64,000 nt of DNA from Candidatus Rokuibacteriota bacterium (GTDB lineage Bacteria; Methylomirabilota; Methylomirabilia; Rokubacteriales; CSP1-6). The stretch spans positions 47,917 to 111,916 of the forward strand of contig QHSL01000060.1 in NCBI GenBank assembly GCA_003220435.1, written 5' to 3'. Within the stretch, counting starts at the first letter, position 1. Each line of letters begins with the position of its first letter. A model generated the notes under the pieces. The model worked only from the letters and a program-made list of their open reading frames with translations. It had not been told where the DNA came from and ran no database searches. The position numbers and the translations under genes are program-made. This document shows, one piece after another, positions 333 through 51,383 of the stretch.

Positions 333-641
333 ATGCGCTGGGCGACCTTGACCTCGCGCAGTGGCGACGGTAGCCTAACCGCCATCAGGCTTGAACCCGA
401 AGCGATCGCCAAAGCCCTCGCTACCTTCATCAATGCCACGATCATGGCCCGCGGCCATCCGGTGCAGCCCGACGACGATCTCGAGCTGGCCGGCCTCGAT
501 TCGATGGCGCTCTTGAAGATCCTGCTCTTCATCGAGGCCGAATACGGATTCTGGATGCCCGACGAGGACCTCGTCGAGGGGAACATCAGGACGGCACGCG
601 CCCTGGCGCGCTACGTCTCCGGACGGCGGAGCGAGCCGTAG
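333..641 (+). CDS. Acyl carrier protein (phosphopantetheine-binding). The start is uncertain and may be TTG at 348.
   Basis: LAGLDSMALLKILLFIEAEYGF contains the ACP DSL/DSM serine attachment motif in a helix-II-like context. Size is about 85-100 aa. It lies immediately upstream of the condensation-domain and adenylation genes. Confidence 0.6.
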   Translation: MRWATLTSRSGDGSLTAIRLEPEAIAKALATFINATIMARGHPVQPDDDLELAGLDSMALLKILLFIEAEYGFWMPDEDLVEGNIRTARALARYVSGRRSEP

Positions 642-8307: not shown

Positions 8308-8325
8308 GAAAATCGATTTTCGATG
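8308..8325. promoter_or_regulatory. AT-rich perfect palindrome GAAAATCGATTTTCGATG in the divergent GntR / unknown-gene intergenic region. It is a candidate operator.
   Basis: AAATCGATTT is a 10-bp perfect palindrome, and ATCGA-AAA-TCGAT overlaps it. This is an AT island inside an otherwise roughly 70% GC region. It lies about 40-60 bp upstream of both divergent starts. Confidence 0.4.
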
Positions 8326-8358
8326 ACAAGAGCAGGTGGGCATGTTAAGGGGAGCCCG

Positions 8359-9807
8359 ATGATCATCCACGTCAACTTCCTGCCGAAGCCCGGCGACACC
8401 GGAGCCAGCGAGGTGATCGCGTCGCTCGCCGGCCTGCTCGATCAGGGTCGGCTCGACGGCGAGGTGCTCTCCCGCCTGCGGCTTCACCTGGACTGGCTCC
8501 AGTACAAGGCGAACTTCCGTGAGCCGATCACGGTCCGCCACGCCACCGGCGCTCGCGGCGAGCCGACCGCGCTCGCAGAGCTCGCGATCGACGTGCGCCG
8601 CGCGCGGCCCGAGCGCCTCGGCGACGAGCTCGCGCACGCGATCGCGTCGGTCGGCGCCGTGGAGCACGAGGTGGCCGGCCGCGCCGTCCTCGAGGACTGG
8701 GCACCGCTCAGCCGGAGTGCGATCTGGCAGTTCAATCGGCTCTTCTGGCAGCGCCTCGTCGATTGGGAGCGCCAGACGGGCCGGGGGTTCGAGGCGGCGC
8801 TGCCGAGCGGTCGGTCGGACGCGAACCATCCGGCGGCCGTCGCCGACGCGGTCGCCGATTTCTGGACGCTGCTGGTCGAGCTCGACAAGCGTGGCCAACT
8901 CCCGCAGGAGATCTTCGCGCTGGAGATCGGCGTGGGTCCAGGCACGCGGGCCGGGCTCTGGCTCGATCGCTTCAAGGCCCTCGACGAGGCGCGCGCCACC
9001 GGCTTCTATCCCCGCCTGCGCTTCCTGCTCGCGGATTACTCGATGCCGACGCTCGACCGCGCACACCGCGCCGTCGAGGCGCACCGCGACGTCGTCAGCA
9101 CGATCGCCACCGACGCGCTGAACCCGATGCGCGCGCTGTCGTTCCTCCGGTACAAGATCCTCTATGTCCACCTCACCAACGTGTACGACAACCTGCCGGT
9201 GGACGAGCTCGTCCGCCGCGACGGCCAGCTGTATCTGGTCGAGACCCGTGCGTATCTGCCGGAGCCGGCATCGACGGCAATTGCTCAGGCCTTCGGGGTT
9301 GGCCCGTCCGAGCAGCCGGCGACCGTCGGTCGCCTGCTCGAGGCGGGTCCCGACCTCTTTGGCGACCGCGAGCGCGGCGTGGCGTTCTGGCGCGCGGTAT
9401 GGGACGGCGTGTGTCTGGAGGAGCGCCTTCGCCGCCTCGAAGGCATCGCCGACGTGCCGCTGCCGCCCGGGCTCGACGGCACCGACCTGGAGGAGCTGCT
9501 CACGACCGCGCCCGCCGACATCCGGTTTCACCTCTCGGGTGGCGCGGTGGAGAGCTTCATGAACACGGTCCCGCTGTTGCACCCGCGCGGTTATCTCCAG
9601 GTGCAGGACATCTTCGTGGCCACGATGGACGAGTACCGCCAGGGGTTCCGGGGGCCGGGCAAGCTCGACGGCTCGGTCGTGAACTGGGTCAACGGCCCCC
9701 TCCTGCGCGTGGTCGGCGCGCGGGCCGGGTACGACGTGCACTTCGCGCCGTTCCGGTATCGGCCGGGCTCGCGCACGACCATTCTCTACACGACGCTCCG
9801 GGAGTGA
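8359..9807 (+). CDS. Hypothetical protein of 483 aa. It has a weak resemblance to a SAM-methyltransferase-like fold (ExGxGxG).
   Basis: Long ORF with strong codon bias. FALEIGVGPGTRAGLWLD loosely resembles methyltransferase motif I (MidA/DUF185-like). I recognise no confident family. It lies immediately upstream of the core-MetE gene. Confidence 0.55.
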   Translation: MIIHVNFLPKPGDTGASEVIASLAGLLDQGRLDGEVLSRLRLHLDWLQYKANFREPITVRHATGARGEPTALAELAIDVRRARPERLGDELAHAIASVGAVEHEVAGRAVLEDWAPLSRSAIWQFNRLFWQRLVDWERQTGRGFEAALPSGRSDANHPAAVADAVADFWTLLVELDKRGQLPQEIFALEIGVGPGTRAGLWLDRFKALDEARATGFYPRLRFLLADYSMPTLDRAHRAVEAHRDVVSTIATDALNPMRALSFLRYKILYVHLTNVYDNLPVDELVRRDGQLYLVETRAYLPEPASTAIAQAFGVGPSEQPATVGRLLEAGPDLFGDRERGVAFWRAVWDGVCLEERLRRLEGIADVPLPPGLDGTDLEELLTTAPADIRFHLSGGAVESFMNTVPLLHPRGYLQVQDIFVATMDEYRQGFRGPGKLDGSVVNWVNGPLLRVVGARAGYDVHFAPFRYRPGSRTTILYTTLRE

Positions 9808-9815
9808 GGGAGATC

Positions 9816-10817
9816 ATGGCCGGTCAGCACCTGACCACCGCCGTCGTCGGCAGCTACTCGATGCCCGGCTGGCTCGAGCGGGCGAAGAACGACTATCTGC
9901 GCCGGCGCATCACCGCGCACGATCTGGACGAGATGCACGACACCGCCGTGAAGGCCGCCATCAAGGACCAGGAGGTCGCCGGCATCGATATCGTCTCCGA
10001 CGGTGAGCTCCGCCGCGACAACATGATCGACTACTTCGCGATGCGGCTGCCCGGTGTCGAGATAGACCGTACGTCCAAGACGTCGTACTACGACTTCTAC
10101 GAGTCCGTCGTGCGCGGGCGGATGCCGATGGCGCCGCTCGGCCTCGTCGAGCACTACCGGTTCCTGCGCCGCTTCACCGACCACCGCACGAAGGTCTCGG
10201 TCACGGGCCCCCACTCGCTGGTCAAGCGCATCCGCAACGAGCACTACCCGAGCGAGGAAGCGTTCGCGATGGAGATCGCGCGCATCATGAACCTCGAGCT
10301 GCGCGAGCTGGTCCGTGCCGGCGCCGAGCAGATCCAGATCGACGAGCCCTACTACTCGGGGTTCCCCGAAGATCTGCCCTGGGGCGTGCGCGCAGTCAAC
10401 GCGTTGGTGGAGAACGTCGACGCGCGGCTGAGCCTCCACGTCTGCTACGGCAACCGCTACGGCAAGCCCTCGTGGGAGGGCAGCTACCGCTACCTGTTCC
10501 CGGCGATCCTCGAGGCGCGCATCGACCAGGTCACGCTCGAGTTCGCGCGGCGCGGCAGCGAGGACCTCCGGCTCTTCAAGGAGTTCGACGCGCCGTTCAC
10601 GCTCGGCCTCGGCGTCATCGACGTGAAGACCCACGATGTCGAGACGCCCGCGGTGGTGGCCGAGCGCATCCGGGAGGCGCTCGCGATCCTCCCGACCGAG
10701 CGGCTGTCCGTCAACCCGGACTGCGGCCTGCTGCATCTGCCACGCGAGATCGCCTTCGCCAAGCTCTGCGCGATGGTGGAGGGCACGCAGCTGGTGCGCC
10801 GCGAGATCTCTGGATGA
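9816..10817 (+). CDS. Core MetE: cobalamin-independent methionine synthase with only the C-terminal catalytic domain and no N-terminal folate-binding barrel.
   Basis: 333 aa. LSLHVCYGN supplies the Zn-ligand His/Cys, and NPDCGL is the MetE C-terminal DCGL motif. A GAGGGAG Shine-Dalgarno sequence precedes the ATG at 9816. The product is less than half the length of canonical MetE (about 750 aa). Confidence 0.8.
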   Translation: MAGQHLTTAVVGSYSMPGWLERAKNDYLRRRITAHDLDEMHDTAVKAAIKDQEVAGIDIVSDGELRRDNMIDYFAMRLPGVEIDRTSKTSYYDFYESVVRGRMPMAPLGLVEHYRFLRRFTDHRTKVSVTGPHSLVKRIRNEHYPSEEAFAMEIARIMNLELRELVRAGAEQIQIDEPYYSGFPEDLPWGVRAVNALVENVDARLSLHVCYGNRYGKPSWEGSYRYLFPAILEARIDQVTLEFARRGSEDLRLFKEFDAPFTLGLGVIDVKTHDVETPAVVAERIREALAILPTERLSVNPDCGLLHLPREIAFAKLCAMVEGTQLVRREISG

Positions 10818-10859: not shown

Positions 10860-12287
10860 ATGACGAACCCGCTGCGGGTGGCGCTGGCGGCGGGGCGCTT
10901 CTGCTACGTGGTCGAGCTGGTCGCGTCCGCGCTCACCCGCGAGGCGCGGCTGCTGGAGACGGCGTCGGGCCTGGCGCGACTGCCCCAGGTGGTCGCCGGC
11001 AGCGTCACGAGCTACGCGGGCGGCGCGATGGGTCACGATCCGCTGCGGGTGGCCGCGGCGGCGCGCGCCCGCGGGCTGACCCCCAACATCCACCTGACGT
11101 GCGTGAGCCAGGACCGCGGCGGGCTGCGCAAGACCCTGGACGACATGCACGCGCTCTCGCTCGAGAACGTCTTCGCGCTCACCGGCGACTACCCGGGCGC
11201 GGGCGACCAGCCGCCGGTGTTCGATCTGGACTCGGTGCAGCTCGTCCATCTGGTCGACGAGCTGCGCCGGGGCGGCAAGGCGTTTCACGTCACGGTGGCG
11301 GTCTCGCCCTTCAAGTACACCGAAGCGGACTGCGTGTACCAGTACGTCAAGCTCGAGAAGAAGATCGCCGCCGGCGCCGACGCCGCCGTCACTCAGGTCG
11401 GCTGGGATGCGCGAAAGCTCGAGGAGCTCAAGCGCTACCTCGACGCGCGGGGGCTTCGCACCCCGCTGCTCGGCAACGTCTACGTGCTCGGCCCGAGGAC
11501 TGCCGAGCGGATGGCGACAGGCCGGCCGCCTGGATGCTGGGTCTCGCCCGAGCTGCTCGCCGCCGTGCGGGCCGAGAGCCTGGCGCAGGACGGCGGGCGT
11601 CAGGCTCGGCTCGAGCGGGCGGCCCGGACGGTGGCGGTGCTGCGCGGGTTGGGCTACGCCGGAGCCTATATCGGCGGCACCCACGACCCGGTGCAGATCG
11701 CCTGGATCATCAGGCGCGCCGACGAGCTGGCACCGAGGTGGGAGGCCCTCGCCGCCGAGCTTCGCTACGGCCCCGCCGGCGGCTTCTATCTTTCGGCGTC
11801 AGCGCCGCGCCCTCGGCACCCGCGACGGGACGCACTGCCGCGAATGCTGGAGTGGCTCGGGCGCGCGCTGCCGGTCACCCGCGACACGCCCCTCCGGCGA
11901 GCGCTCGCGCGCGTGTTCGCCTGGATCGACCGCCACCGGCCGGCCGCGGTGCTGCTCGAGCACGTCGAGCTCGCGATCAAGAAGCCCCTCTTCGGGTGCC
12001 AGGCGTGCGGCAACTGCGTGCTGGGCCACCTCGAGTACGTGTGCCCGCAGACCTGTCCCAAGCAGATGCGCAACGGCCCGTGCGGTGGCACCGACAACGG
12101 CCGATGCGAGGTGGTGCCGGACAAGCCCTGCATCTGGGTCGCGGTCCACGACCGCGCCAAGGCGTCGGGATCGCTCGACGGCCTCAAGACCTACGTCCCG
12201 CCGCCGCATCGCCAGCTTCGCGACACGAGCTCGTGGATCAACTACTTCCTGGACCGAGACAGCCGGCCCGGTCCGGGCGGAGGCTGA
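10860..12287 (+). CDS. metF: Methylenetetrahydrofolate reductase (MetF-like) fused to a C-terminal MetV-type zinc-ribbon domain.
   Basis: The N-terminal roughly 300 aa form an MTHFR TIM barrel (HLTCVSQDRGGLRKTLDDM, FALTGDYP). The C-terminus has CQACGNCVLGHLEYVCPQTCPKQMRNGPCGG, a Cys-rich MTHFR_C/MetV domain. That domain is a separate small protein in acetogens. Confidence 0.8.
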   Translation: MTNPLRVALAAGRFCYVVELVASALTREARLLETASGLARLPQVVAGSVTSYAGGAMGHDPLRVAAAARARGLTPNIHLTCVSQDRGGLRKTLDDMHALSLENVFALTGDYPGAGDQPPVFDLDSVQLVHLVDELRRGGKAFHVTVAVSPFKYTEADCVYQYVKLEKKIAAGADAAVTQVGWDARKLEELKRYLDARGLRTPLLGNVYVLGPRTAERMATGRPPGCWVSPELLAAVRAESLAQDGGRQARLERAARTVAVLRGLGYAGAYIGGTHDPVQIAWIIRRADELAPRWEALAAELRYGPAGGFYLSASAPRPRHPRRDALPRMLEWLGRALPVTRDTPLRRALARVFAWIDRHRPAAVLLEHVELAIKKPLFGCQACGNCVLGHLEYVCPQTCPKQMRNGPCGGTDNGRCEVVPDKPCIWVAVHDRAKASGSLDGLKTYVPPPHRQLRDTSSWINYFLDRDSRPGPGGG

Positions 12288-28279: not shown

Positions 28280-29659
28280 TCAGCTCAGCACGACCTTGAT
28301 GGCGTCGCGGGTGACGCTGACGAGCCGGTCGATCTCCGCCGCCGTCACCACGAGCGGCGGCGCGAAGTAGACCGAGTCGCCGGGCGCCGGGTGCGCGCCG
28401 GCCGCCGGCCGCGTGCGCGTGACGACGCCGCGCTTCATCATCTCGGCCTGGATGCGCGGGGCCACCTTGCGATCGCCGGCGAAGTTCTTTTTGGTGGCGC
28501 GGTCCTCCACCAGCTCGACGGCGGCCAGCAGTCCCTTGCCGCCGCGGATGTCGCCGGCGTTGGGGTGATCACCGAAGGTCTGCTTGAGCCCCTCGTAGAG
28601 CCGCGCGCCCATCGCGGCAGCGTTCTCCGAGAGGCGCTCGCGCTCCATGATGTCGAGGTTCTTCAGCGCGACCGCGCAGCAGGTCGGATGGCCCGAGTAG
28701 GTGTAGGCGTGCATCCAGCGGTCCTCGGGCTTCACCGAGTCCATCGTCTCTTTGATCGGCTTCGACACCATGATGCCGCCGAGCGGCAGGTAGCCCGAGG
28801 TCACACCCTTCGCGAACGAGAGGATGTCCGGCTTCACGTTCCAGTGCCCCAGCGCGAACCAGCGCCCGGTGCGACAGAACCCCGTGATCACCTCGTCGCC
28901 GATCAGCAGCACGTTGTGTCGCGTGCACACCTCGCGCACGCGCGGCCAGTAGTCGTCGGTGGGATAGATGACGCCGCCGCCGCCGTGGATCGGCTCGCCG
29001 ATGAACGCCGCGACGGTATCGGGCCCCTCGCGCAGGATCGTTTCCTCGAGCTCGCGCGCGGCCGCCTGGCCCACGCTCTCGCCGGGCTTGGCGCCCTGGA
29101 ACCGGTACGGGTAGCACGTCTGGATGTGCACGAAGCCCGGCACGCGCGGCTCGAACATCTTCCAGTAGGCGCCCATCCCGGTGGCGCTCATCGCCTGCAG
29201 GGTGACGCCGTGGTAGCCCTGCTGGCGCGAGATGATCTTGATCTTGTCGGGCTTTCCGTGAGCCTTCCAGTAGAAGCGCGCCGTCTTGAACGCCGACTCG
29301 TTCGACTCGGCCCCGCCGCAGGTGAAGAACACCGCCTGCATGTTGTCGTACGTGATCTCCATGAGCCGGTTCGCCAGCGTGATCGCCGGCACGCTCGACG
29401 AGCCGACGTAGCCGGAGAAGTACGCCAGATCCTTCATCTGCGCCGCGGCGGCGTCGGCCAGCTCAGTGCGCCCGTGGCCCACGTTGACGTTCCAGAGCCC
29501 CGAGAGCCCGTCGATGTACTCGTGGCCGCCGATCTCCTGGATCATCGCGCCGCGCCCGCGGACGTAGATGACCGGCTCGGAGTTGTCGACCGGATGATGG
29601 AGCGGGTGGATCAGGTGATCCTGATCGGCCTTGACGAGTTCTGCCGCGGTCAGCGCCAT
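28280..29659 (-). CDS. Class III pyridoxal-phosphate aminotransferase (omega-aminotransferase family).
   Basis: LLIGDEVITGFCRTGRWFA is the class III PLP motif. The lysine region SFAKGVTSGYLPLGG is present. The product is 459 aa. Confidence 0.9.
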   Translation of the reverse strand: MALTAAELVKADQDHLIHPLHHPVDNSEPVIYVRGRGAMIQEIGGHEYIDGLSGLWNVNVGHGRTELADAAAAQMKDLAYFSGYVGSSSVPAITLANRLMEITYDNMQAVFFTCGGAESNESAFKTARFYWKAHGKPDKIKIISRQQGYHGVTLQAMSATGMGAYWKMFEPRVPGFVHIQTCYPYRFQGAKPGESVGQAAARELEETILREGPDTVAAFIGEPIHGGGGVIYPTDDYWPRVREVCTRHNVLLIGDEVITGFCRTGRWFALGHWNVKPDILSFAKGVTSGYLPLGGIMVSKPIKETMDSVKPEDRWMHAYTYSGHPTCCAVALKNLDIMERERLSENAAAMGARLYEGLKQTFGDHPNAGDIRGGKGLLAAVELVEDRATKKNFAGDRKVAPRIQAEMMKRGVVTRTRPAAGAHPAPGDSVYFAPPLVVTAAEIDRLVSVTRDAIKVVLS

Positions 29660-30051
29660 TGCTTCCTCCCCAGTGGAGCCCGTGAGCGACTCGGGCGGGC
29701 CCGCCGATAGTCGCCGTCCGGGATGACGACGGCCCGATGTTGCGGCCCACGATACCGATAGACCCAGGCGCGCTCACGCCGGCCACTCGCGAGCGTGACG
29801 ATAGTGCGACGACGCTCGAAATTGTACCCCACCTCCTCGCGGTCAAGCACCGCGAGAAGTTCTGGATCGTCCAGCCGATACAGCTCCCCACGCGCGCGGG
29901 CATCCCCCTCGATCAGCCCCGGCCATCGGCCCAGATCGACCAGCCGTCCGCGCACGCGTCCCTCGCCGAGGAAGGTCGCATCTCTGGCGAGGAGCCGATG
30001 CAAGACGTAGCCGCGCATGAAGGTTCCGTAGGCGAACAGCAGCGGGGGCAC
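29650..30051 (-). CDS. Gamma-glutamylcyclotransferase / AIG2-like family protein (second copy).
   Basis: LFAYGTFMRGYVLH is the AIG2/GGCT YGTLxxG motif. Its 3' end overlaps the aminotransferase start by 10 nt. Confidence 0.65.
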   Translation of the reverse strand: MPPLLFAYGTFMRGYVLHRLLARDATFLGEGRVRGRLVDLGRWPGLIEGDARARGELYRLDDPELLAVLDREEVGYNFERRRTIVTLASGRRERAWVYRYRGPQHRAVVIPDGDYRRARPSRSRAPLGRKQWR

Positions 30052-30077
30052 GGCGCGGCGGGTCCGGCGGCCGGCCG

Positions 30078-30728
30078 TCAGGAGGTCTCCACCGCCTGGA
30101 GGACCGCGCCCAGGAAGTCGCGCTCGGGCACGGCGCCTTCGAACTGCACCCGGTCGTTGATCACGACCTTCGGCACGCCCATCACGTGGTAGGCGCGCGA
30201 CAGCTCGGGGAACTCGGTCGCCTCGATGACGGTGGAACGCACGCGATCCGACGCCACCGACATGTGCTGTGCCAGGCGCACGGCCCGGGGGCAGTGCGGT
30301 CAGGTGGGCGTCGAGAAGACCTTGATGTCGACGTCGGACGCCAGTGCCCGCAGCGAGGCCAGGGTGTCCTCGCTCAGCGCCGGCGCGCCGGTCGAGGCCA
30401 CGATGATCGCGTCGATCAGGTTGCTGAACTCGTAGCCGAGCGGGACGCCGTAGAAGCGGATGCCATAGTCGCGGGCGCCCTCGACGACAATGGCCGGCAC
30501 CTGGTCGATCCCGTAGGTCTCGGCGCGCTCGCGGTCGATGGCGAGGTTGAGCACCTCGACCGTGATCTGCGCGGAGAGCGCGGCGACCTCGCGCACGAGC
30601 TGCTCGTTCTGCCGGCAGAGGTCGGCGGCGGCGAGCTCCTGCGAGAAGACGACGAGCTTCACCCCTCCGGCGATGCGCTCGAATTCCTTGCGGACGGCGG
30701 CCTGGTCGCGCTCGGTCAGAATGGGCAT
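30078..30728 (-). CDS. Candidate selenoprotein: a PDO / AhpF-N-terminal-like double thioredoxin-fold oxidoreductase. The in-frame TGA at 30300-30302 is read as Sec in the motif TPT-U-PHCP.
   Basis: The track ORFs 30300..30728 and 30078..30281 are in the same frame and separated only by TGA plus 6 codons. The junction reads ...KVFSTPT-[TGA]-PHCPRAV(R)LAQHMS..., and PHC completes a DsbA/PDO-type CPHC active site whose first Cys is the TGA. The second ORF would otherwise begin 6 codons after the active site with no redox motif. A hairpin lies 12-28 nt downstream of the TGA. Confidence 0.55.
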
Positions 30729-30771: not shown

Positions 30772-31374
30772 ATGAAGCCCTTCGTGGTCAACCGCTACGG
30801 CCGGATCGTCTTCCCGTTCAACTTCTTCCCCGAGCTCGACTTCTCGATCTTCGGCGACGGCGCGGCGGCGCTCGTCGTGGCGCCGGCGCCGGCCGGCGCG
30901 CCGCCCGACGTCGAGTGGCTCCAGACCTACGCCAGCGGGCCCATGAGCGAGGTCGACTCGATCGTGTGGCCGAACCCCGAGTTCGACAACAACATCACCG
31001 TCTACGGCCCGCAGGTGGTCGCGCTCGTGAAGCGCTACCTCACGCAGATGATCGACGAGCTCCGTGGTCTCCCCGGCCCGGAGGGAGCGCCGGGCTCGCT
31101 CCTGGACGCGGTCGACCTGATCGTGCCCCACCAGGCCAACAAGATGATGGTCATCAAGCTCGCGCAGGCCGCCGGCGTCGCGCCCGACCGGCTCTACTTC
31201 GACATCGACCGGGTGGGCAACACGTCGTCGGCGTCGATCCCGATCGCGATCCAGGACGCGGTCCGCGACCGAGTCATCGACCGCCCGCCGCGCATCTTCG
31301 CCCCGGGCTTCGGCGCCGGCGCCGTCGCAGGCTACATCGTCGCGCGAATCGACCCCGCGATCGTCGCCGTCTAA
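30772..31374 (+). CDS. FabH (3-oxoacyl-ACP synthase III) C-terminal-domain-only protein. It lacks the N-terminal domain that carries the active-site Cys.
   Basis: IFGDGAAALVV, LIVPHQANK and RVGNTSSASIPIA (the His and Asn of the Cys-His-Asn triad) align to the C-terminal half of FabH. The product is only 200 aa. It has its own GAGGGGG Shine-Dalgarno sequence and a TAGAAT -10-like box. Confidence 0.7.
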   Translation: MKPFVVNRYGRIVFPFNFFPELDFSIFGDGAAALVVAPAPAGAPPDVEWLQTYASGPMSEVDSIVWPNPEFDNNITVYGPQVVALVKRYLTQMIDELRGLPGPEGAPGSLLDAVDLIVPHQANKMMVIKLAQAAGVAPDRLYFDIDRVGNTSSASIPIAIQDAVRDRVIDRPPRIFAPGFGAGAVAGYIVARIDPAIVAV

Positions 31375-41172: not shown

Positions 41173-41941
41173 CGGCGGACGGGCGGCGGAGGACCAGGAG
41201 GTCGATGGCTTCGAGAACTGGCGTCGGGATGGTTTCCTGGTCGGCGGCGTGGCGCATGCGGGCGAGGCCGGCTTGGAACTCGGCGTCGGTGATGAGGGCG
41301 AAGGTGGAGAGGGCGCGCTGCTTGATGCGGTCGTAGTGGGCGGTGAGGCTCGCGTCGATCTCTTGCTCGAGCGTGTCGAGGGCGACCAGCTCGAAGCCGT
41401 GGGCGGCGAAGGCCGAGCGCACCGACTCAACCGTCGGCAGACGCGCCTCGTCGGCGGCGCGCGCCTCGGGGAAGAACTCGAAGTAGCGCACGCGGTCGAG
41501 CCGCCCGGCGAAGGTGTTGCGGATGAACACGAGGCCACCCGGCTCGAGAACCCGGCGCAGCTCGCGCGCGCAGGCGCCGAGGTCGCCCACGTGATGGATG
41601 ACCATCGAGAGGAACGCGAAGTCGAACTCACCGTCGGCGGCCGGGATGGCGTCGGCCGCGCCTCCCACGTAGGCGACGTCGCGATGCGCGCCGTGGCGCT
41701 CGGCCTCCTCGCGCATCTTCGCGGACGGCTCGACGCCGACGACGCGGGCGCCGAAAGCGTCGGCCAGGATCCCCGAGAAGCGACCGGTGCCGGCACCGAG
41801 GTCGAGGATCGCTCGCGCGCTCCGCCGGCCGAGGTAGGCGGCGATCGCATCCATCCAGAGCCCACCGGTGTCCGGCGCGAGCGCGCGGCCCGTGCGATAC
41901 GTCCGATAGAGATCGCGGTCGTAGTCGACCGGCGTCACCAC
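41144..41941 (-). CDS. Class I SAM-dependent methyltransferase.
   Basis: ILDLGAGTGRFS is motif I, and a post-I acidic residue follows. The product is 265 aa. The GTG start overlaps the upstream stop. Confidence 0.8.
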   Translation of the reverse strand: MVTPVDYDRDLYRTYRTGRALAPDTGGLWMDAIAAYLGRRSARAILDLGAGTGRFSGILADAFGARVVGVEPSAKMREEAERHGAHRDVAYVGGAADAIPAADGEFDFAFLSMVIHHVGDLGACARELRRVLEPGGLVFIRNTFAGRLDRVRYFEFFPEARAADEARLPTVESVRSAFAAHGFELVALDTLEQEIDASLTAHYDRIKQRALSTFALITDAEFQAGLARMRHAADQETIPTPVLEAIDLLVLRRPSAASLLQPKLQ

Positions 41942-42699
41942 AAGGCGTCGGGGAGGGGCAGTCCCTTGAACTCGTGGGTCGGCAGTGGCACGGACGGCGT
42001 GATGCCGAGCCGCTCGGCGAGCGCATAGAGCTGCCGCAGGTGCTGCGCCGCGTGCCAGGTCGTGCGCTCGAGCAGGTCGTGGCCGGACTGCGGGCCGTAG
42101 TAGACCTTGATCACGCGCTCGAACTCACCCGGCGACGCGCCCTCGAACCAGCCGGTGATGCGCCCGCGCACGAGGGCGCCGTAGCGCGCGATGGCCGGAC
42201 CGTCGCGCAGGTCGTCGGGCGCCTGGTCGAGCAGCCAGGTCCCCGGGAACTCCCCGAGGTCCATGCCGTCCACGAACGCCAGCGAGAGCCGGAAGACGTG
42301 ATAGCCGAGGTTGCGGAAGGTCCGGTTGCGCTCGGGAGGCCGCCACTCGAGATGCTGGTCCGGCACGATCCGCATGAACTGCTGGGTCGTGTCCAGGAAG
42401 ACGTCGAGCCGCCGGGCCAGCTCCGTCGGCGGAAGCTTGGTCACCCCCGCGTAGGGAATGCCGAGCAGCGCGGCGTAGGCCGGCGGGTTCCAGCCGTGCG
42501 CGGCACGGTCGCCGACGGTGACCGCCGGCACGCGGGATACGCCCAGCCGCTTGAGCTCGTCGTAGCCCGCCGGGTTCGCCTGAACGTCCACCGGGTCGAA
42601 CTCGACCCCCCAAGACGAGAGAAGCTCCTTCGTCTTGGCACAGGACGATCAACCCGGGCGATAGAAGAGCTTGACCACTGTTCCAGAAACCTTGCTCAT
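41935..42699 (-). CDS. Candidate selenoprotein: a glutaredoxin-like domain (U-S-S-C motif, TGA at 42649-42651) fused to a DinB_2/YfiT-like thiol-dependent enzyme domain.
   Basis: ATG at 42699 gives MSKVSGTVVKLFYRPG-[TGA]-SSCAKTKELLSSWGVEFDPVDVQANPAGYDELKRLGVSRVPAVTVGD..., a textbook Grx fold (xCxxCxxxKxLL..GVxFxxVDV) whose first active-site Cys is the TGA. The track starts this gene at GTG 42591, in the middle of the Grx fold. A perfect 9-bp stem with an 11-nt loop (CCAAGACGA-AGGAGCUUCUC-UCGUCUUGG) starts 11 nt downstream of the UGA. Confidence 0.55.
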
Positions 42700-43866: not shown

Positions 43867-46800
43867 TCAGGTCAGTCCGAGGCGCCGCCGGGCCACCGCC
43901 CCGACGACGTTCAGGACGTCCTCGATCTTCAACGGCTTGCCGAGCACCAGCTCCACACCGTGGGTCTGGCGCTCCGCCGCCGACAGCTCGACCCCGAATC
44001 CGGAGACGAGGACCACCGGCACCGCGGGGGCATGCTCCTTGACGGCCTGGGCCACCTGCCAGCCGGACACCCGGGGCATCGCCAGATCGGTGAACACGAG
44101 GTCGAAGAATTCGGAGCGGATCCGCGCGATCGCCTCGCCGCCGTCGTTGAGCACCACGACCCGATGGCCCGCCATCTCGAGCAAGTCGCCGAGCACCGCG
44201 CCCACGTCCTCCTCGTCGTCGACCACCAGACAGCGCAACGACACACCGGGCGGCGCGGGCTCGACGGCCGACACGGTCTCCGCCCGCTCGGGCGCCGCGC
44301 GCGGCGTGAACCGGAGGCGGAACGTGGTACCGCGGCCCTCCTGGCTCTCGACCGTGATCCGCGCGCCGTGGCGCGTGAGGATGCCGTACGTCATGGAGAG
44401 CCCCAGGCCGGTGCCCTGCGGGCCCTTCGTGGTGAAGAACGGGTCGAAGATCTTGCCGCGGATGGCCTCGGGGATTCCGACGCCGGAGTCGACCACCGTC
44501 ACCACGACCTCGTCGCCCTCCACGGCGGTGGTGAGGGTCAACGACCCGCCCCCCGGCATCGCGTCCAGCGCGTTCAGGATGAGGTTGGTCATGGCCTCGC
44601 GGAGCTCGGCGGGGTCGCCGGCCACCCGGGGTAGGTTCGCGAACGAGGTCCGCACGTCGAGGGCCACGCCGCGACTGCTCGGCTCTTCCTTCCAGCTCGA
44701 CTGGGTGATCTCGAGCGCTTCGCGCACGATCTCGTTGAGGTTGATCGCGACGAAGGGCTGATCGCGGCGCGTCCGCGTGAACTCCTGCAGCCGCCGGACG
44801 GTCTGCGCTCCGTCGAGGGCGGCGCGCTCGATCACCTTGAGCCACTGGCGCAGCTGCGGGTCTTCGAGCCGCTGGAGCGTCAGCTGCGCCCGGCCCAGGA
44901 TCGACGCGAGCAGGTTGTTGAAGTCGTGGGCGACGCCCGACGCCATCTCGCCGAGCGCGCGCAGCTTCTCCGTGCGGACGAGCTGGTCCTGCGCCGCCGC
45001 CAGCTCGCCGTACGCACGAGTGCGCTCCTCGAAGAGCTGCGCGCTACGCAGCGCGAGCGCGACGAGGTGGGCGATGTTGGTGAGGAGCCGCTCATGGGCC
45101 ACGCTGAACGCGCCCTCCGCGCTCCGGAGGCCGAGCACGCCGAGCACCGCTTCGTCCGCCATCATCGGGACGCCCAGCCAGTAGCGCAGCGGCGCGACGG
45201 CCAGCGTGGGCTCGACGCCCCGGCGGGCGCACTCGCCGATGTAGTCGTCGGTGCGGAGCGGCCGCCCGGTCTGGATCACGACCGACATGAGTCCGACCGA
45301 GCCGAGAGGATACCGGAGCGGCGCGCGCGCGTCCGGCGCGCCGTCGACGACGCGGAGCGCGATCTCGAGCTCCTTGCGCTCGGGGTCGTGGAGCGCGACG
45401 AACAGGTGACGGGCGTCCAGCACGCGAGCGACCTGCACCCGGATCGCCTCGATGAGGGCCACCCGATCGAGCTGGCCGGTGACCGCCTGCGACAGCTCGT
45501 GGAGCACCGACAGCTCCTCGACCTGCCGACGGTTCTCCTCGAAGAGGCGGACGTTCTCGAGCGCGACCCCGGCCTGCGTGGCGACGGCTTCCATCAGCGC
45601 CATCTCGCCGGCCGAGAGCTCGCGCACCTGCTCCCACCAGATCAACGAGAACCCGCCGATCACCCGCTCCTGCGCAACGATCGGGACAAACAGGTGGCTC
45701 TGGTGCGCGAGCAGCTCCTTGGCAAACTGTGGAATCCGTCCGTCGCCGGGCACGTCGGCCGAGAAGATCGGGCGCTTCGTCCGGATCGCCTCCGCCAAGA
45801 AGGCATGCTCGGCGAGCGGAATGCTGAAGCCCGTCATGCGGGCGCGGAGATCGACGGGAACGTGGTAGCCGGCGACCGGCAGGAGCCGCGAGCCGTCCTC
45901 ATCGAGCAGCCACACCCCCGCCGAGTCGGCGCCCAGGGCGCGAGTCACGCGGCGGAGGAAATGGCGGAGGAGGGCCTGGAGGTCGAGCGTCGTCGACATC
46001 GCCTGGCTCAGCGACAGCAGTGTCTCCGTCTCACGCACCCGCTCCCGGGCCTCGGCGTAGAGTCGCGCGTTCTCCAGCGCGATGGCGGCCCGCGCGGCGA
46101 AGCTCTCCAGGACGGCCAGATCCTCGTCGAGGAAGGGCGCCGCAGGGTCCCCCGCGCGATTCATGGCGATGACGCCGAGCAACCGGTCCTGGAAAATGAG
46201 CGGGCACGCCACCGCACGCGTCACGCCGAGATCGACCCATCGCTGGAGGGCGACGCTCGAGTCCGCGTAGTCGTTGACGATCAGCCCCCGCTGTTGCTCG
46301 GCGCAGGCGCCGACCACGCCGTGCCCGAAGCGGACGGTGACGCCGCCGAACCCGCCGCCCTCCGTCCACGCGCGGGGCGCCAGCATCCGATCGCCGTCGA
46401 CGAGATAGATGACGCCGTTGGCCTCGAAGAGGCGCGTGGCGCGCTCGACGATCAGCGTGAACAGGCGCGCCGGATCGAGCTCGGGCGCCAGCTCGCGCTC
46501 GGCCTCGGCAAGCGTCGCGATCTGGGCGCGGCGGGCCGCCTCGAGCGAGAACAGCCGGGCGTTCTCGAGCGCCAGCGCGGCCTGGTCGGCGAACGCCTCG
46601 AGCAGTGCGACCTCGGCCGGCGAGAAGACGCGGCCGCTCGCGTCGGCCAGGGCCAGCGCGCCGATGATCCGTCCCTTGGCTCGGAGCGGCACCGACAGGA
46701 CCGCGCCGTCACCCGCTTGCCGCATCGTCGCGCGCAGGTCGTCGGTCATGACGACGGTCGGATCCGTGAAGAGATCGGCCGATGCGACGGCCCGCCCCTC

Positions 46801-49800
46801 GGCGACGGCCCGGCCCGACGCGCCGACGCCGGCGGGCACCGTGGATCCGAGCTGCAGCACGTTGCGAAGGTGACCGCCCACCGCCAGCGTCACCAGCGAG
46901 CCGTCGGGCTGGAGCAGCCGCAGCGTCGAGGACTGGGCCCGGAAAAATGCGGTGACGCTGTCGACGATCCGCTCGCCGACCGCCCTGGGATCGAGGCTCT
47001 CGGTGAGCGTGCGGGCGAGTCGCGCCAGCTCTTCCGCCTCGAGCCGGCGGCGCGTACCCTCCGTGTAGAGCCGGGCATTCTCCAGCGCGAGCGCGGCCTG
47101 GTCGGCGAGCGCCTCGGCGACGCGGATCTCGTCCTCGCCGAACCGCCGGCCGGGCTGGTCGCCGACGGAGAGCGCCCCCACGACGCGCTCGCCCACCCGC
47201 AGCGGCACCGCCAGCACCGCGCGATGGCCGGCGCGCTCGGGGCGCGGGCGCGTCTCGTCGGTGAACGTGAAGCGGGGGTCCGTCGAGACGTCGGGGGTCG
47301 CGAACGGTCGGCGCTCCTCGACCGCGAGGCCCGCGACACCGATGCCGCTGGGCATCACCGGGTTCCGGCCGACCGCCACTCCGGAGGTGCCCGAGACGGC
47401 GAGCGCGACGAGCGATGCGGACTCCGTCTCGAGGCGATAGAGCGTGGAGGACTCCGCGGCCAGCACGCTGAGGGCGTTATCGGCGACCCGTTGCGCGACG
47501 AGGTCGGGATCGAGGGTTTCCGAGAGGAGTCGGCCGAGGTCGGCCAGCGCCCGCATGCGCTGCGCCTGGCGCGTGGCCTCGTGATACAGGCGGGCGTGCT
47601 CGAGCGCGATCGCCGCCTGCCCGGCGAACGCCTCGGCGATCTCCTGGTCGCGGGCCGAGAACGGTCGCCGCGCTCGGAAGCTGAGCACGCCGATCGCCCG
47701 GTCCGCCACCTTGAGCGGCACGCCGAGGAACGTCGTGTAGCCAAGCCGCTGCTGCGCCTCGTAGTGCTCCGGCACCACGTCGGTGACCGACGTGAGCTCG
47801 CAGTTGATCGTCCCGCCGCTCGTCATGACCCGACCGCTCAGGCTCTCGTCGATCCGGATGCGCGGGCGGAGCATCGTCTCGTGGGCGGCTCCGGCGAGCC
47901 CCGCGATGACCAGTTCGTCGCCGTCGAGCAGGCGGAACCTGGCGTTGTCGACCTCGAGGAGCCGGGCGGCCTCCTCGGCGATCGAGGAGAGCAGCGAGTC
48001 GGTCGGCGTCACCCCGCCGATCTTCTTGTTGATCTCGAGCAGCGCCGCCAGGTAGGCGCGGCGGGCGCGCTCGTCCGCGAACGCCTTGGCGTTGTTGATC
48101 GCGTTCGCGGCGTGCGAGGCCAGGGAGCCCAGGATCTGGATCTCTTCGAGGGTGTGCGCGTGCCGGACCCGGGAGCCCAGCGCCAGCGCGCCGAGCGCCC
48201 GCACGCCGACCTCCAGCGGGACCACGACCACGCTGACCACGCCTTCAGCGCGCACGCGCTCGACGAATCGGGTCCGCGGGTCGTTGAGCACGTCGACGAC
48301 CTCCAGCGGCTCGCGAGTCACGACGACGGTTCCGATCAGTCCCTCCCCCACCCGCAGCCGCGAGACCTCGCCCCTCGCCACGGTGGTGCCCGCCTCGGTC
48401 CGGAGCGAGACATGCCGCGCGTCGTCGTCCACGATCCACAGCTGCGCGGCGCTCGAGCCGAACAGCTCGACCGCGGCGTCGACCACGCGCTGGAACACCT
48501 CGTCGAGGGAGAGCGTGGCGGTGAGCGTGTGGGCCAGGCGCGCCAGCGTCTCGAGCCGCCGGCTCTTCTCGCGACTCTCGATCAGGAGCGTGGCGCGGGC
48601 CACCGCCTGGCCCACCTGATGCGCGACCGCTTGCAAGAGGTTCAGCTCGTCGGCGTCGAACGCGCGGACGTCCCGGGAGATCAGCGCCATCACTCCCCAT
48701 GTCCGGCCGCTCACGGGAATCGGCAGCCCGAGCTGCGTCCGGTAGCCTCCGGCCCGCAGCCGATCGGCCACGTCGGGGGTCAGCGCTTGCGACGACGTGA
48801 GATCCGAGACAACGGGCCGGCCGCTGTCGATCACCTCGCGGACGTGGCTCTGGTCGAGGGGGCGGACCCGAACTCGCTCGATGTCCGCGGGTAGGAGCCC
48901 GCGGTGGCCGACCAGGACGAGCGTCTGCGCCGCGCGGTCGAAGCGGAAGACGGCCCCGAAGTGCATCCGCGCCAGCGCGCACACGACCTCGAGCGTGCGC
49001 TCCGCGGTGACGGTGAGGTCGTCGCCGCTGCCGGTGGCCACCGCGACGGCGTGCAGTGCCTCGAGCTCCCGGCTTCGGCGCGCGTACGGCGCCTCGCGTC
49101 CTTCCGTACGCGGCTCTCGCGATCCTTCCCCTCGCCCCGACACGATGCCCACGACGACCACCCCGACCGCGACGGCCACCGCGCCGCCCAGCGAGACCGC
49201 CCACCAGAACCAGAGGCGCCGGCTCTCGCCTTGATGCTCGCGCTCCGAGACCAGCGCCCAGATGCTGCCGCCGGCTTCGGCGACCGGACGCGCGATCCAC
49301 GACTCCCCCTTGATGCTCACGCGCCCGGTCCGGGCGACGGCGTCCCAGCCCTGCGTCAGCGCGCCGGCCAGCGTGGAGCCGAGCACGCGGTCGCCCGACA
49401 CCACCACGAGCGCCGCGCGGGTCGGCAGGCGCGCCAGCAACGCGTCCAGCGACTCGAAGCGCCGCCCGACCACGACCATGCCGGCGGGGAGCGGCGCGAT
49501 GCCGAGGACGTAGGGCCGCTCGTCGACGACGGCGAGGCGTGCGACGGTCTCCGGGGGGCGGGCGACCGCCGGCACGACGACCGGGCGCGCCGCCGGCACC
49601 TGGACCAGCGGGGCGCCGGTCGCGTCGACGATGAGCAGCAGGTCGGCGAAGCGCTCCCGCGTCAACGCCTGCATCCGCGGCCCCGCACCGCGCGCGAGCG
49701 TGGCCCAGTCGCTCCGGCTCGTGCCCTCGACGACGGCCGGGTCCTGGGCCAGGAGCCACGCCTCGCGACGCACGTCCTCGAGCGCCGTCGCGACGATCGC

Positions 49801-49953
49801 GTGGACGGACGCGAGCGCGGCGCTGACGGTGGTCGCCTGGCGGGACGCGAGCTGGCGCGCGAGCAGCACGCCGGCGACGGACCAGAGCGTGAGGAGACCG
49901 ACGAGCGGGAGAACCAGGCGGCGCACGGATCGGTGTCCGAGCGCGAGCCTCAC
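43867..49953 (-). CDS. Hybrid sensor histidine kinase. It has a periplasmic sensor domain, about nine tandem GAF domains, HisKA + HATPase_c, and a C-terminal receiver domain.
   Basis: Two TM helices flank a periplasmic domain of about 250 aa. Repeated GAF units each end in ...LENARLY/F. HisKA reads ASGVAHDFNNLL. HATPase_c has DSGVGIP and GTGLGLS. The receiver has LVVDDEEDV...D...LVSGF...K. A GTG start at 49953 overlapping the pyk stop (GTGA) is preferred over the in-gene ATG at 50010. Confidence 0.85.
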   Translation of the reverse strand: MRLALGHRSVRRLVLPLVGLLTLWSVAGVLLARQLASRQATTVSAALASVHAIVATALEDVRREAWLLAQDPAVVEGTSRSDWATLARGAGPRMQALTRERFADLLLIVDATGAPLVQVPAARPVVVPAVARPPETVARLAVVDERPYVLGIAPLPAGMVVVGRRFESLDALLARLPTRAALVVVSGDRVLGSTLAGALTQGWDAVARTGRVSIKGESWIARPVAEAGGSIWALVSEREHQGESRRLWFWWAVSLGGAVAVAVGVVVVGIVSGRGEGSREPRTEGREAPYARRSRELEALHAVAVATGSGDDLTVTAERTLEVVCALARMHFGAVFRFDRAAQTLVLVGHRGLLPADIERVRVRPLDQSHVREVIDSGRPVVSDLTSSQALTPDVADRLRAGGYRTQLGLPIPVSGRTWGVMALISRDVRAFDADELNLLQAVAHQVGQAVARATLLIESREKSRRLETLARLAHTLTATLSLDEVFQRVVDAAVELFGSSAAQLWIVDDDARHVSLRTEAGTTVARGEVSRLRVGEGLIGTVVVTREPLEVVDVLNDPRTRFVERVRAEGVVSVVVVPLEVGVRALGALALGSRVRHAHTLEEIQILGSLASHAANAINNAKAFADERARRAYLAALLEINKKIGGVTPTDSLLSSIAEEAARLLEVDNARFRLLDGDELVIAGLAGAAHETMLRPRIRIDESLSGRVMTSGGTINCELTSVTDVVPEHYEAQQRLGYTTFLGVPLKVADRAIGVLSFRARRPFSARDQEIAEAFAGQAAIALEHARLYHEATRQAQRMRALADLGRLLSETLDPDLVAQRVADNALSVLAAESSTLYRLETESASLVALAVSGTSGVAVGRNPVMPSGIGVAGLAVEERRPFATPDVSTDPRFTFTDETRPRPERAGHRAVLAVPLRVGERVVGALSVGDQPGRRFGEDEIRVAEALADQAALALENARLYTEGTRRRLEAEELARLARTLTESLDPRAVGERIVDSVTAFFRAQSSTLRLLQPDGSLVTLAVGGHLRNVLQLGSTVPAGVGASGRAVAEGRAVASADLFTDPTVVMTDDLRATMRQAGDGAVLSVPLRAKGRIIGALALADASGRVFSPAEVALLEAFADQAALALENARLFSLEAARRAQIATLAEAERELAPELDPARLFTLIVERATRLFEANGVIYLVDGDRMLAPRAWTEGGGFGGVTVRFGHGVVGACAEQQRGLIVNDYADSSVALQRWVDLGVTRAVACPLIFQDRLLGVIAMNRAGDPAAPFLDEDLAVLESFAARAAIALENARLYAEARERVRETETLLSLSQAMSTTLDLQALLRHFLRRVTRALGADSAGVWLLDEDGSRLLPVAGYHVPVDLRARMTGFSIPLAEHAFLAEAIRTKRPIFSADVPGDGRIPQFAKELLAHQSHLFVPIVAQERVIGGFSLIWWEQVRELSAGEMALMEAVATQAGVALENVRLFEENRRQVEELSVLHELSQAVTGQLDRVALIEAIRVQVARVLDARHLFVALHDPERKELEIALRVVDGAPDARAPLRYPLGSVGLMSVVIQTGRPLRTDDYIGECARRGVEPTLAVAPLRYWLGVPMMADEAVLGVLGLRSAEGAFSVAHERLLTNIAHLVALALRSAQLFEERTRAYGELAAAQDQLVRTEKLRALGEMASGVAHDFNNLLASILGRAQLTLQRLEDPQLRQWLKVIERAALDGAQTVRRLQEFTRTRRDQPFVAINLNEIVREALEITQSSWKEEPSSRGVALDVRTSFANLPRVAGDPAELREAMTNLILNALDAMPGGGSLTLTTAVEGDEVVVTVVDSGVGIPEAIRGKIFDPFFTTKGPQGTGLGLSMTYGILTRHGARITVESQEGRGTTFRLRFTPRAAPERAETVSAVEPAPPGVSLRCLVVDDEEDVGAVLGDLLEMAGHRVVVLNDGGEAIARIRSEFFDLVFTDLAMPRVSGWQVAQAVKEHAPAVPVVLVSGFGVELSAAERQTHGVELVLGKPLKIEDVLNVVGAVARRRLGLT

Positions 49954-51383
49954 GTGCGGCGCTCGCCCACCCGGTGAAGCTTCAATAGATTTGTCGTCCC
50001 TCGGACCCACATCGGTGAGCCGGAGATGATAACGATCACGTCATTGGCACGCATCGAGTCGTCGCCGAGCAGGGTCGCCTCGACCTCCTCGATCATCTCG
50101 TCGGTCGTCTCGACCTTCCGGATGAGACGTGACGAGACCCCCCACGAGAGGGCCAGCCGTCGCTGGACCTCGACGAACGGGGTGAGCGCGATGATCGGCA
50201 CGTCCGGGCGCGCCTGGGAGATCAGTCGGGCCGAGAAGCCCGATTCGGTGAACGCCACGATGGCGCGCGCACCGAGCGCATGCGCCGCAGTCGCCGCCGC
50301 GTCCGAGATCGCTTCCGGGAAGCTCGCGCTCGGACGTCGCCGCCGCTCCCGGTCGATGGCCAGCACCGCGCCGTCCGCGCGCTCCGCGATCCGCGCCATG
50401 ACCGCGACGGCCTCGGCGGGATACCGCCCGGTGGCCGTCTCGGCCGACAGCATGATCGCGTCGGCGCCGTCGAAGATCGCCGTGGCGACGTCCGACACCT
50501 CGGCGCGCGTCGGGCGGAGATGCGTCACCATCGACTCGAGCATCTGGGTCGCGACGATCACGGCGACCTTGGCGCCGCGCGCCTGGCGGATGATCTCCTT
50601 CTGGATGTGGGGAACGTCCTCGAGCGGCACGTCCACGCCCAGATCGCCGCGGGCGACCATGACCGCGTCGACGACGTTCAGGATACCAGGCAGGTTGGCG
50701 AGGACCTCGTGCCGCTCGAGCTTGGCGACGAGCGGCACGTCGTCGGCGCCCTCGGCTCGCAGGAAGCTCCGCACCTCCTCGATGTCGTCGGCCGAGCGCA
50801 CGAACGAGACCGCGACGAAGTCGACGCGCTGTCGGAGGCCGAAGCGCAGGTCCGCACGGTCCTTGTCGGTCAGGCAGGACATCGGCAGCGACACGTGCGG
50901 CAGCGAGAGCCCCTTGTGGTCGCTGATGCGCCCACCGGCCACCACCCGGCACCGGACCTCGTCCGGTAGCACGGCCTCGACGCGAAGCTGGATCATCCCG
51001 TCGTCCATCCAGATCTGGTCGCCCGGCCGTAAATCCTTCAAGAACTCCGGATGGGTGATCGACGCGCGCTCGGCGGTGCCGACGACCGGTCGCATGCTGA
51101 GCGCGAACACACCGTCCGGCTCGAGGTCCACGCGCGCGCCGCCGCCGGGCCCGAACGTGCCCAGCCGGATCTTGGGCCCCTGCAGATCTTGAAGTATGGC
51201 CACCGGCCGGCCCCAGCGGGCCTCGCCTTCACGAATGCGACGGATGACTTCGGCGTGCTCCTCGTGCGTGCCGTGGGAGAAGTTGAGGCGCGCGACGTCC
51301 AAGCCGGCCGCCGCGAGGCGGTCCAGCTCGGCGGTGCTGCTGCTGGCGGGACCGATCGTGCAGACGATCTTGGTCCGGCGCAT
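49950..51383 (-). CDS. pyk: Pyruvate kinase.
   Basis: MRRTKIVCTIGPASSS...ARLNFSHG...MVARGDLGVD...VIVATQMLESM are canonical pyruvate kinase motifs. The product is 477 aa. Confidence 0.9.
   Translation of the reverse strand: MRRTKIVCTIGPASSSTAELDRLAAAGLDVARLNFSHGTHEEHAEVIRRIREGEARWGRPVAILQDLQGPKIRLGTFGPGGGARVDLEPDGVFALSMRPVVGTAERASITHPEFLKDLRPGDQIWMDDGMIQLRVEAVLPDEVRCRVVAGGRISDHKGLSLPHVSLPMSCLTDKDRADLRFGLRQRVDFVAVSFVRSADDIEEVRSFLRAEGADDVPLVAKLERHEVLANLPGILNVVDAVMVARGDLGVDVPLEDVPHIQKEIIRQARGAKVAVIVATQMLESMVTHLRPTRAEVSDVATAIFDGADAIMLSAETATGRYPAEAVAVMARIAERADGAVLAIDRERRRRPSASFPEAISDAAATAAHALGARAIVAFTESGFSARLISQARPDVPIIALTPFVEVQRRLALSWGVSSRLIRKVETTDEMIEEVEATLLGDDSMRANDVIVIISGSPMWVRGTTNLLKLHRVGERRT

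Follow-up and report, generated by a model that had tools for sequence, protein, structure and literature searches.

Two adjacent open reading frames of a Candidatus Rokuibacteriota bacterium very probably constitute a single PDO-family selenoprotein gene interrupted by an in-frame UGA codon

Does a TGA triplet that separates two adjacent open reading frames (ORFs) of the same frame mark the end of a gene, or does it lie within one? This question is raised by a locus for a thioredoxin-fold protein on the minus strand of a 64,000-nt stretch of DNA (~70% G+C; the whole of it is referred to here as the window) from Candidatus Rokuibacteriota bacterium (Methylomirabilota). The upstream ORF (30300..30728, minus strand) begins with ATG, encodes 142 amino acids (aa) and terminates in the TGA triplet at 30302..30300, while the downstream ORF (30078..30281, minus strand) begins with GTG, encodes 67 aa and is read in the identical frame. 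The gap between this TGA and the GTG codon at 30281 amounts to exactly six codons (P H C P R A). Translation of the region 30728..30078 in one frame yields 216 codons with a single internal stop (...DIKVFSTPT*PHCPRAVRLAQHMS...), and the read-through protein reads ...KVFSTPT-U-PHCPRAV..., with U standing for selenocysteine (Sec). An initial annotation of this DNA had pointed to the shared frame and to the TGA plus six codons between the two ORFs; its coordinates, the frame and the motif were all reproduced in our analysis. We conclude that the two ORFs very probably represent one gene for a double-thioredoxin-fold disulfide oxidoreductase in which an active-site Cys is replaced by a UGA-encoded Sec residue. 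With a probability of roughly 90%, the region 30078..30728 (minus strand) is a single gene of the protein disulfide oxidoreductase (PDO) family (TIGR02187) whose UGA is decoded as Sec via a downstream Sec insertion sequence (SECIS) hairpin. The features on which the following paragraphs are built are:

30078..30728, minus strand: PDO-like (TIGR02187) gene of 216 residues, very probably encoding a selenoprotein and now called as two ORFs (142 aa and 67 aa); based on the shared frame, the TIGR02187.2 match and full-length alignment to PDB entries
30300..30302, minus strand: in-frame UGA, the putative Sec codon for residue 143, which opens the U-P-H-C redox motif; based on the conservation of the TGA and on the Cys found there in distant homologs
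30291..30293, minus strand: codon for the resolving Cys of the UxxC motif, invariant as Cys

In public records, the two halves of the gene lead separate lives. The product identical to the 142-aa half is listed as 'hypothetical protein DME04_09170 [Candidatus Rokuibacteriota bacterium]', and a protein search recovered more than 100 clusters of truncated homologs of 140-150 aa with 83-100% identity. Public labels for the 142-aa half are 'hypothetical protein' or 'AhpF', and those for the corresponding 61-69-aa half are 'hypothetical' or 'DsbA-family'. This split annotation is spread over many contigs and hundreds of sequence clusters.

To assign the read-through product to a family, we searched with a sequence in which Cys was substituted for the stop. 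The NCBIfam model TIGR02187.2 ('PDO_seleno_TRX, protein disulfide oxidoreductase') was matched with 250.2 bits (cut-off 185), with residues 6-212 of the product lying on profile positions 2-209 of 209, that is, over the full length of the model. A Pfam Thioredoxin_3 domain covers residues 134-210 and thereby crosses the stop at residue 143. The PDO proteins of Pyrococcus horikoshii (1J08) and Pyrococcus furiosus (PfPDO; 1A8L) aligned end to end over residues 2-213 (E ~1e-41 and ~1e-40, respectively), and the Aquifex aeolicus PDO structures (2AYT, 2YWM) were likewise matched end to end, so that the E-values across the PDOs ranged from ~1e-39 to 1e-41. In 1A8L and in 1J08, the first Cys of the C-terminal CPYC site falls into the column of the UGA. 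Judged from these alignments, the product is a full-length member of the TIGR02187 family with a double thioredoxin fold like that of the PDOs and of the AhpF N-terminal domain, and its single chain of about 220 residues is predicted to consist of two tandem thioredoxin-fold units. The C-terminal unit carries the CPxC-type redox site (U-P-H-C here; TPTCP[YH]CP in homologs), while the N-terminal unit presents A-D-L-C where PfPDO has C-Q-Y-C; only the second of the two Cys residues is thus kept, and a second CxxC site is absent. The column of this retained N-terminal Cys is occupied by Cys in 121 of 152 rows of our homolog set. Since the N-terminal unit possesses AxxC only, the protein would have a single redox centre, as does the AhpF N-terminal domain.

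The comparison with structurally characterized relatives can hence be summarized in terms of what is shared and what is not. The Pyrococcus (1A8L, 1J08) and Aquifex (2AYT, 2YWM) PDOs have the same two tandem thioredoxin-fold units with a CP[YH]C-type site at the same position of the C-terminal unit; however, they have Cys where the Rokubacterial protein would have Sec, and PfPDO possesses a second redox site (CQYC) in its N-terminal unit where the Rokubacterial protein has AxxC. The N-terminal domain of AhpF (1HYU, 1ZYN; E ~1e-13) also shows a double thioredoxin fold with a dithiol only in the second fold. In contrast to AhpF, the Rokubacterial protein is not fused to a thioredoxin-reductase-like FAD/NADH module, and there is no adjacent ahpC gene. 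An identity as AhpF was rejected: the product is a stand-alone protein of 216 residues lacking that module, and its scores for TIGR03140 (77 bits) and TIGR03143 (96 bits) compare with cut-offs of 503 and 688, respectively. With scores so far below the cut-offs, the 'AhpF' label given by the Joint Genome Institute (JGI) to halves of this gene reflects a domain-level resemblance only. The proposal of the initial annotation of a PDO/AhpF-N-like double thioredoxin fold, for which it had suggested alignment of the read-through protein to PDO/TIGR02187-type families, was therefore borne out by a full-length match above the cut-off, and so was its placement of the TGA at the first Cys of a C-P-H-C active site.

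We then asked how the TGA behaves among orthologs. A scan of one genome per species yielded 80 loci with 66-94% aa identity, nearly all of them labelled Rokubacteria, Rokuibacteriota, Methylomirabilota or Methylomirabilia, and a few bearing other or no phylum names. Together with the window and six independent metagenome contigs, these species-representative genomes gave a set of 87 sequences. A TGA was present at the aligned codon in 87/87 of them, including all 80 species representatives. The exact 142-aa product was found on seven independent metagenome contigs, on each of which it was followed by a Thioredoxin_3 ORF of 61-67 aa. An exhaustive search of 50%-identity cluster representatives provided 149 further, more distant homologs (31-49% identity), which were aligned with MAFFT; they are mostly single proteins of 210-240 aa. 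Among the 147 that cover the UGA column, 140 have Cys at this position, within the motif TPTCP[YH]CP. By this alignment, the UGA column is a classical Sec/Cys pair.

The codons that follow the TGA were analyzed in 78 orthologs that are gap-free around the site. Codon +1 (Pro) makes use of all four synonymous codons with no amino-acid change whatsoever, codon +2 alternates between His and Tyr, matching the CP[HY]C motif of the Cys-containing homologs, and codon +3 is invariant as Cys with TGT in 41 and TGC in 37 species. Synonymous-only change at codons +1 and +3 indicates purifying selection on the protein downstream of the TGA. The annotated GTG start is replaced by GTA or GTC in 4 of the 78 species and is consequently not a conserved start. 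In this comparison, the stretch after the TGA varies as translated sequence does, and not as would be expected if a spacer between genes preceded a conserved start.

Two close relatives depart from the TGA. One of them (P0002) lies on a 1.4-kb JGI contig (Ga0597037_0494071; L088, positions 614..616; 74% identity) and has TTA (Leu) at this codon with the hairpin intact. TTA differs from TGA by one base and is very seldom used at 70% G+C; it is probably either a sequencing error or a recent inactivating mutation. The other (P0001), a single read-derived sequence, has Cys at the UGA position and is the only Cys-form close relative.

What could instruct the ribosome to read through the UGA? Immediately downstream of it, within the coding sequence, lies a hairpin whose positions are given here as offsets from the U of UGA (U = 0). 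Its upper stem is formed by CCGGGC (+14..+19) and GCCUGG (+25..+30) and encloses the loop CGUGC (+20..+24); a lower stem is formed by CUG (+8..+10) and CAG (+33..+35). The predicted energy of the hairpin is -8.9 kcal/mol, and -10.5 kcal/mol with the CUG/CAG lower stem included. The corresponding features are:

30272..30288, minus strand: 17-nt upper stem-loop CCGGGC-CGUGC-GCCUGG, the putative SelB-binding core, beginning 11 nt after the UGA; based on RNAalifold and on frozen third codon positions
30267..30294, minus strand: whole predicted SECIS element including the 3-bp lower stem CUG/CAG; based on RNAalifold

RNAalifold, run on 21 diverse orthologs, returned the same structure as the consensus, and the sole change in the stem was a G.U to A-U replacement in one species. 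The initial annotation had drawn a stem-loop with a 6-bp upper stem, a CGUGC loop and a CUG/CAG lower stem, and this is exactly the structure that emerged. The G and the U of the loop are invariant (87/87). The lower stem is without independent support, as pair 9/36 is broken in 2 of the 21 orthologs and the positions involved are also constrained by their coding function. The minimum-free-energy fold of the 60-nt stretch was rejected in favor of the conserved hairpin, because its alternative pairing runs through position +32, which is variable among species.

We next turn to synonymous codon usage. Across species that are 64-97% identical in nucleotides, codons +4 to +9 (CCC CGG GCC GUG CGC CUG) have entropies of 0, 0, 0.39, 0.34, 0, and 0 bits (mean 0.12), whereas the mean for the 72 remaining well-conserved codons of 4-fold or higher degeneracy is 1.09 bits. 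An entropy as low as that of codons +4 to +9 was not obtained in any of 200,000 random six-codon draws, and a Mann-Whitney test gave p = 3e-5. CGG is fixed in the hairpin although the rest of the gene does not favor it as the Arg codon, and the frozen codons coincide exactly with the hairpin. Judged by this comparison, the hairpin is under constraint at the RNA level. Among the 72 comparison codons, only one falls below 0.4 bits, and this is the codon directly before the UGA.

We note in this connection that the Thr codon just before the UGA (30303..30305, minus strand) is ACC in 75 sequences and ACG in 2, while the other Thr codons of the gene vary freely. The near-fixation of ACC may reflect a context effect on Sec insertion versus termination.

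The geometry of the hairpin is that of a bacterial SECIS (bSECIS) element. Under the published bSECIS model given in PMC13188914, the loop comprises 3-9 nt with a G among its first two positions, the upper stem has 4-16 bp, the loop lies 16-37 nt from the UGA and the energy is -7.5 kcal/mol or below. The Rokubacterial hairpin, with a 6-bp stem, a 5-nt loop whose second and third nucleotides are G and U, a UGA-to-loop distance of 17 nt and a predicted -8.9 kcal/mol, falls within each of these ranges. According to PMC8659212 (citing Liu et al. 1998), the minimal SECIS element of E. coli fdhF is a 17-nt upper stem-loop located 11 nt from the UGA with the loop nucleotides G23 and U24. When counted with the U of UGA as nucleotide 1, the Rokubacterial 17-nt hairpin occupies the same nucleotides 15-31 and has the invariant loop GU; it differs in that it lacks a bulged U in the 5' arm, has the loop CGUGC and is built from an unrelated stem. 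SelB is predicted to bind it. This likeness to the E. coli minimal element makes the Rokubacterial hairpin directly testable in E. coli reporter systems.

Several of our observations weigh against the decoding of the UGA as Sec via this hairpin. Our own implementation of the bSECIS criteria also passed 10 of 27 (37%) ordinary TGA stops in the window; the hairpin alone is therefore not discriminating, and we dropped the criteria scan as stand-alone evidence. Taken as a single sequence, the hairpin within the 60-nt stretch of the window was no more stable than shuffled sequences (z = +0.56), a measure that is uninformative in DNA of 70% G+C. Compensatory covariation was not seen in the PDO hairpin, whose stem was invariant in this respect among the 21 orthologs. 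Nothing relevant came from Rfam, whether the entire window was searched with gathering thresholds or the 101 nt surrounding the UGA with E <= 10, and we attach little weight to this result. The case for a function of the hairpin thus rests on the loss of synonymous variation and not on foldability. Furthermore, the 64-kb window and ~1.2 Mb of DNA from related loci yielded no selA, selB, selD or tRNA-Sec gene; the search was confined to this window plus +/-10 kb segments of related genomes, so that its outcome reflects an absence of data for the rest of the genome and does not indicate that these genes are missing. Within these limits, ARAGORN found no tRNA-Sec in the window and 60 related loci, Pfam scans of ~40 window ORFs revealed no SelA, SelB-wing or SelD domain, and tblastn with approximate E. 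coli SelA, SelB and SelD queries gave zero matches in the 1.2 Mb. In the Methylomirabilota, Sec decoding is instead supported by the literature: a metagenome-assembled genome of this phylum with 63 predicted selenoprotein genes has been described (Deng et al. 2026, as cited in PMC13188914), and Sec-type group 4 hydrogenases are known from Methylomirabilota (PMC13582414).

If the TGA were a true stop, the locus would encode a separate 142-aa N-terminal thioredoxin-fold protein and a 67-aa C-terminal fragment initiated at the GTG codon at 30281. Public annotations do call two ORFs, and TGA is a normal stop codon in this genome; yet termination at this position would cut the second thioredoxin fold through its first beta-strand and deprive it of the nucleophilic residue, and the Pfam domain at residues 134-210 spans the TGA. 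The six codons from the TGA to the GTG change synonymously while the protein they specify is conserved, the GTG itself gives way to GTA or GTC in some species, and homologs outside the clade are single proteins of 210-235 aa with Cys at the UGA position. We consider two separate products to be very unlikely. Less probable still are an error of sequencing or assembly as the source of the TGA and a pseudogene status of this copy. Single-base differences do occur, as the TTA on the 1.4-kb JGI contig and the Cys in one read-derived sequence illustrate, but the presence of TGA in 87/87 independent assemblies from many studies refutes this explanation, and both halves of the gene are under strong purifying selection. 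The initial annotation had likewise judged a chance stop or a base-call error to be improbable, citing two further genes of the window with the same arrangement, and the behavior of the TGA among the orthologs and in these two genes agrees with this judgement.

A reassignment of TGA to a standard amino acid throughout the genome (code 4 or a code 25-like variant) can be dismissed with about the same firmness as an error. What could be cited in its favor is limited to three in-frame TGAs in the window, and it is refuted by 27 confident window genes that end at TGA with normal lengths, among them those for pyruvate kinase (477 aa) and UvrA (964 aa); moreover, the in-frame TGAs of the window are located only at CxxC-type redox cysteines. 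Because TGA is an ordinary stop in this genome, only context-dependent recoding explains the read-through. Such recoding could in principle involve the SECIS element and SelB and nevertheless insert Cys, by way of a tRNA(ReC)/selC*-type tRNA, be it at all times or under selenium shortage. A SelB-dependent, Cys-inserting tRNA(ReC) has been discussed for Sec-rich uncultured bacteria (PMC13582414), and the available DNA does not separate Sec from Cys insertion. However, no tRNA of this kind was seen in the window and the related DNA examined, and TGC or TGT would be a simpler means to encode Cys, yet TGA is kept in all 80 species representatives, with one read-derived sequence as the only relative of the TGC/TGT type. 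We therefore regard Cys insertion as improbable, if somewhat less so than termination at the TGA, and favor decoding of the UGA as Sec.

Decoding of the UGA as Sec would proceed along the following lines. The 17-nt hairpin (30288..30272; loop CGUGC) would act as a bacterial SECIS element and would be bound by the SelB-GTP-Sec-tRNA(Sec) complex while the ribosome sits at the UGA, with Sec insertion competing with release factor 2. Sec143 would then serve as the N-terminal nucleophile of the redox motif (U-P-H-C) that belongs to the second thioredoxin fold, and it may attack substrate disulfides, or receive electrons, via a selenenylsulfide formed with Cys146. By analogy with PfPDO and other archaeal PDOs and with the Thermotoga glutaredoxin (Grx)-like systems, the electron donor is probably a flavoprotein of the thioredoxin-reductase type, with peroxiredoxins (Prx) or protein disulfides probably acting downstream.

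Selenoproteins of the PDO family are already known, as are Sec-rich Methylomirabilota, and our result is accordingly an annotation correction and not a discovery; it leaves the existing picture of selenoproteins as it was. The PDO selenoprotein family has been listed since 2004, and the name of the NCBIfam model TIGR02187 itself includes 'seleno'; neither the PDO family nor the Methylomirabilota are mentioned in the deep-Sep paper. With the known family, the Rokubacterial proteins share a putative Sec at the first Cys position of the CPxC motif in the second fold and a SECIS hairpin directly downstream in the coding sequence, the difference being that they stem from Rokubacteria/Methylomirabilota, high-G+C organisms mostly of soil and groundwater. 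What is new are Rokubacterial orthologs with a putative Sec in every species representative recovered (80), the apparent use by these genes of an E. coli-like minimal SECIS element, and their division into two mislabelled ORFs in public annotation. They provide a clean example of a putative Sec residue found in every species representative recovered from a large clade.

Two further genes of the window, both candidates for selenoprotein genes and each split in the same way by ORF calling, had been singled out by the initial annotation as showing the same arrangement, and in both of them the TGA and the hairpin proved to be conserved:

41935..42699, minus strand: glutaredoxin-DinB_2 fusion with the motif FYRPG-TGA-SSC (G-U-SSC); TGA at 42651..42649, hairpin at 42610..42638; based on the conserved TGA and hairpin
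56858..57595, plus strand: AhpC/TSA (Prx-like) protein with the motif FYRGYW-TGA-PFC (W-U-PFC); TGA at 57248..57250, hairpin at 57268..57285; based on the conserved TGA and hairpin

Orthologs of the Grx-DinB_2 gene were present in the flanks of 24 PDO loci, and all of them have kept the TGA (24/24). Its hairpin of 9 bp (CCAAGACGA/UCGUCUUGG) is conserved, and the closing pair shows a compensatory change from A-U to C-G at three of these loci (L027, L044, L045). The product scored below the cut-offs of the NCBIfam UXX-star selenoprotein models and may therefore represent a separate Grx-type selenoprotein subfamily. As to the Prx-like gene, 18/18 metagenomic orthologs (52-99% identity) carry the TGA together with a hairpin of 7 bp capped by a GGNC loop, while homologs at 32-55% identity carry TGC (Cys). 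This gene probably falls into the 'Prx-like thiol:disulfide oxidoreductase' family of selenoproteins, which is already known, and its product, whose N-terminal ~90 residues are strongly hydrophobic, is probably membrane-anchored. A scan of the window for additional same-frame pairs of coding-like ORFs joined by a TGA revealed no further convincing case. Merging the fragments restores three redox enzymes to the proteome of an abundant uncultured soil phylum. Should the density of three selenoprotein genes per 64 kb hold for the whole genome, the selenoproteome would exceed 63 genes, the reported bacterial record for the phylum, a size that we consider doubtful.

The PDO gene heads a conserved cluster (28280..30728, minus strand) with the gene order PDO selenoprotein, GGACT-like protein, class-III aminotransferase, whose second and third members are:

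29650..30051, minus strand: GGACT/AIG2-like gamma-glutamyl cyclotransferase-family gene (Pfam PF06094), 26 nt past the PDO stop
28280..29659, minus strand: class-III aminotransferase gene (Pfam PF00202), overlapping the stop of the GGACT-like gene

At related loci with enough sequence, the GGACT-like gene lies directly downstream of the PDO gene on the same strand in 73 of 77 cases, and the class-III aminotransferase gene takes the third position in all 65 cases. Co-transcription of the GGACT-like gene with the PDO gene is likely. Given the conserved order of these three genes, the PDO could be devoted to one pathway. The suggestion that it is a redox component dedicated to a so far undescribed Rokubacterial pathway of gamma-glutamyl or thiol compounds, and not a general disulfide reductase, is speculative, and we think it probably wrong.

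Some minor observations were made elsewhere in the window. Close to the PDO gene, a plus-strand ORF of 200 aa (30772..31374) contains only an ACP_syn_III_C domain and corresponds to the first ~25 and the last ~175 residues of a ~620-aa relative. This full-length form is present at related loci (L008, 8098..9957, minus strand; L011; L021; L028; L032), and ~1.25 kb has apparently been lost in frame from the window ORF, between '...ELDFS(V/I)F' and 'IFGDGAAALVV...'; this gap is either a true deletion or an assembly collapse. A 684-aa ORF with a very high G+C content at third codon positions (8763..10817, plus strand) ends in a TGA (10815..10817) that is in frame with an MTHFR/DUF5981 gene (10860..12287, plus strand; ATG at 10860); the two are most likely merely adjacent. 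The 684-aa ORF also overlaps a candidate ORF at 8323..9807, the latter being without a Pfam match. The gene at 43867..50010 (minus strand) encodes a hybrid histidine kinase of 2047 aa in which HisKA, HATPase_c and receiver domains come after about eight GAF domains.

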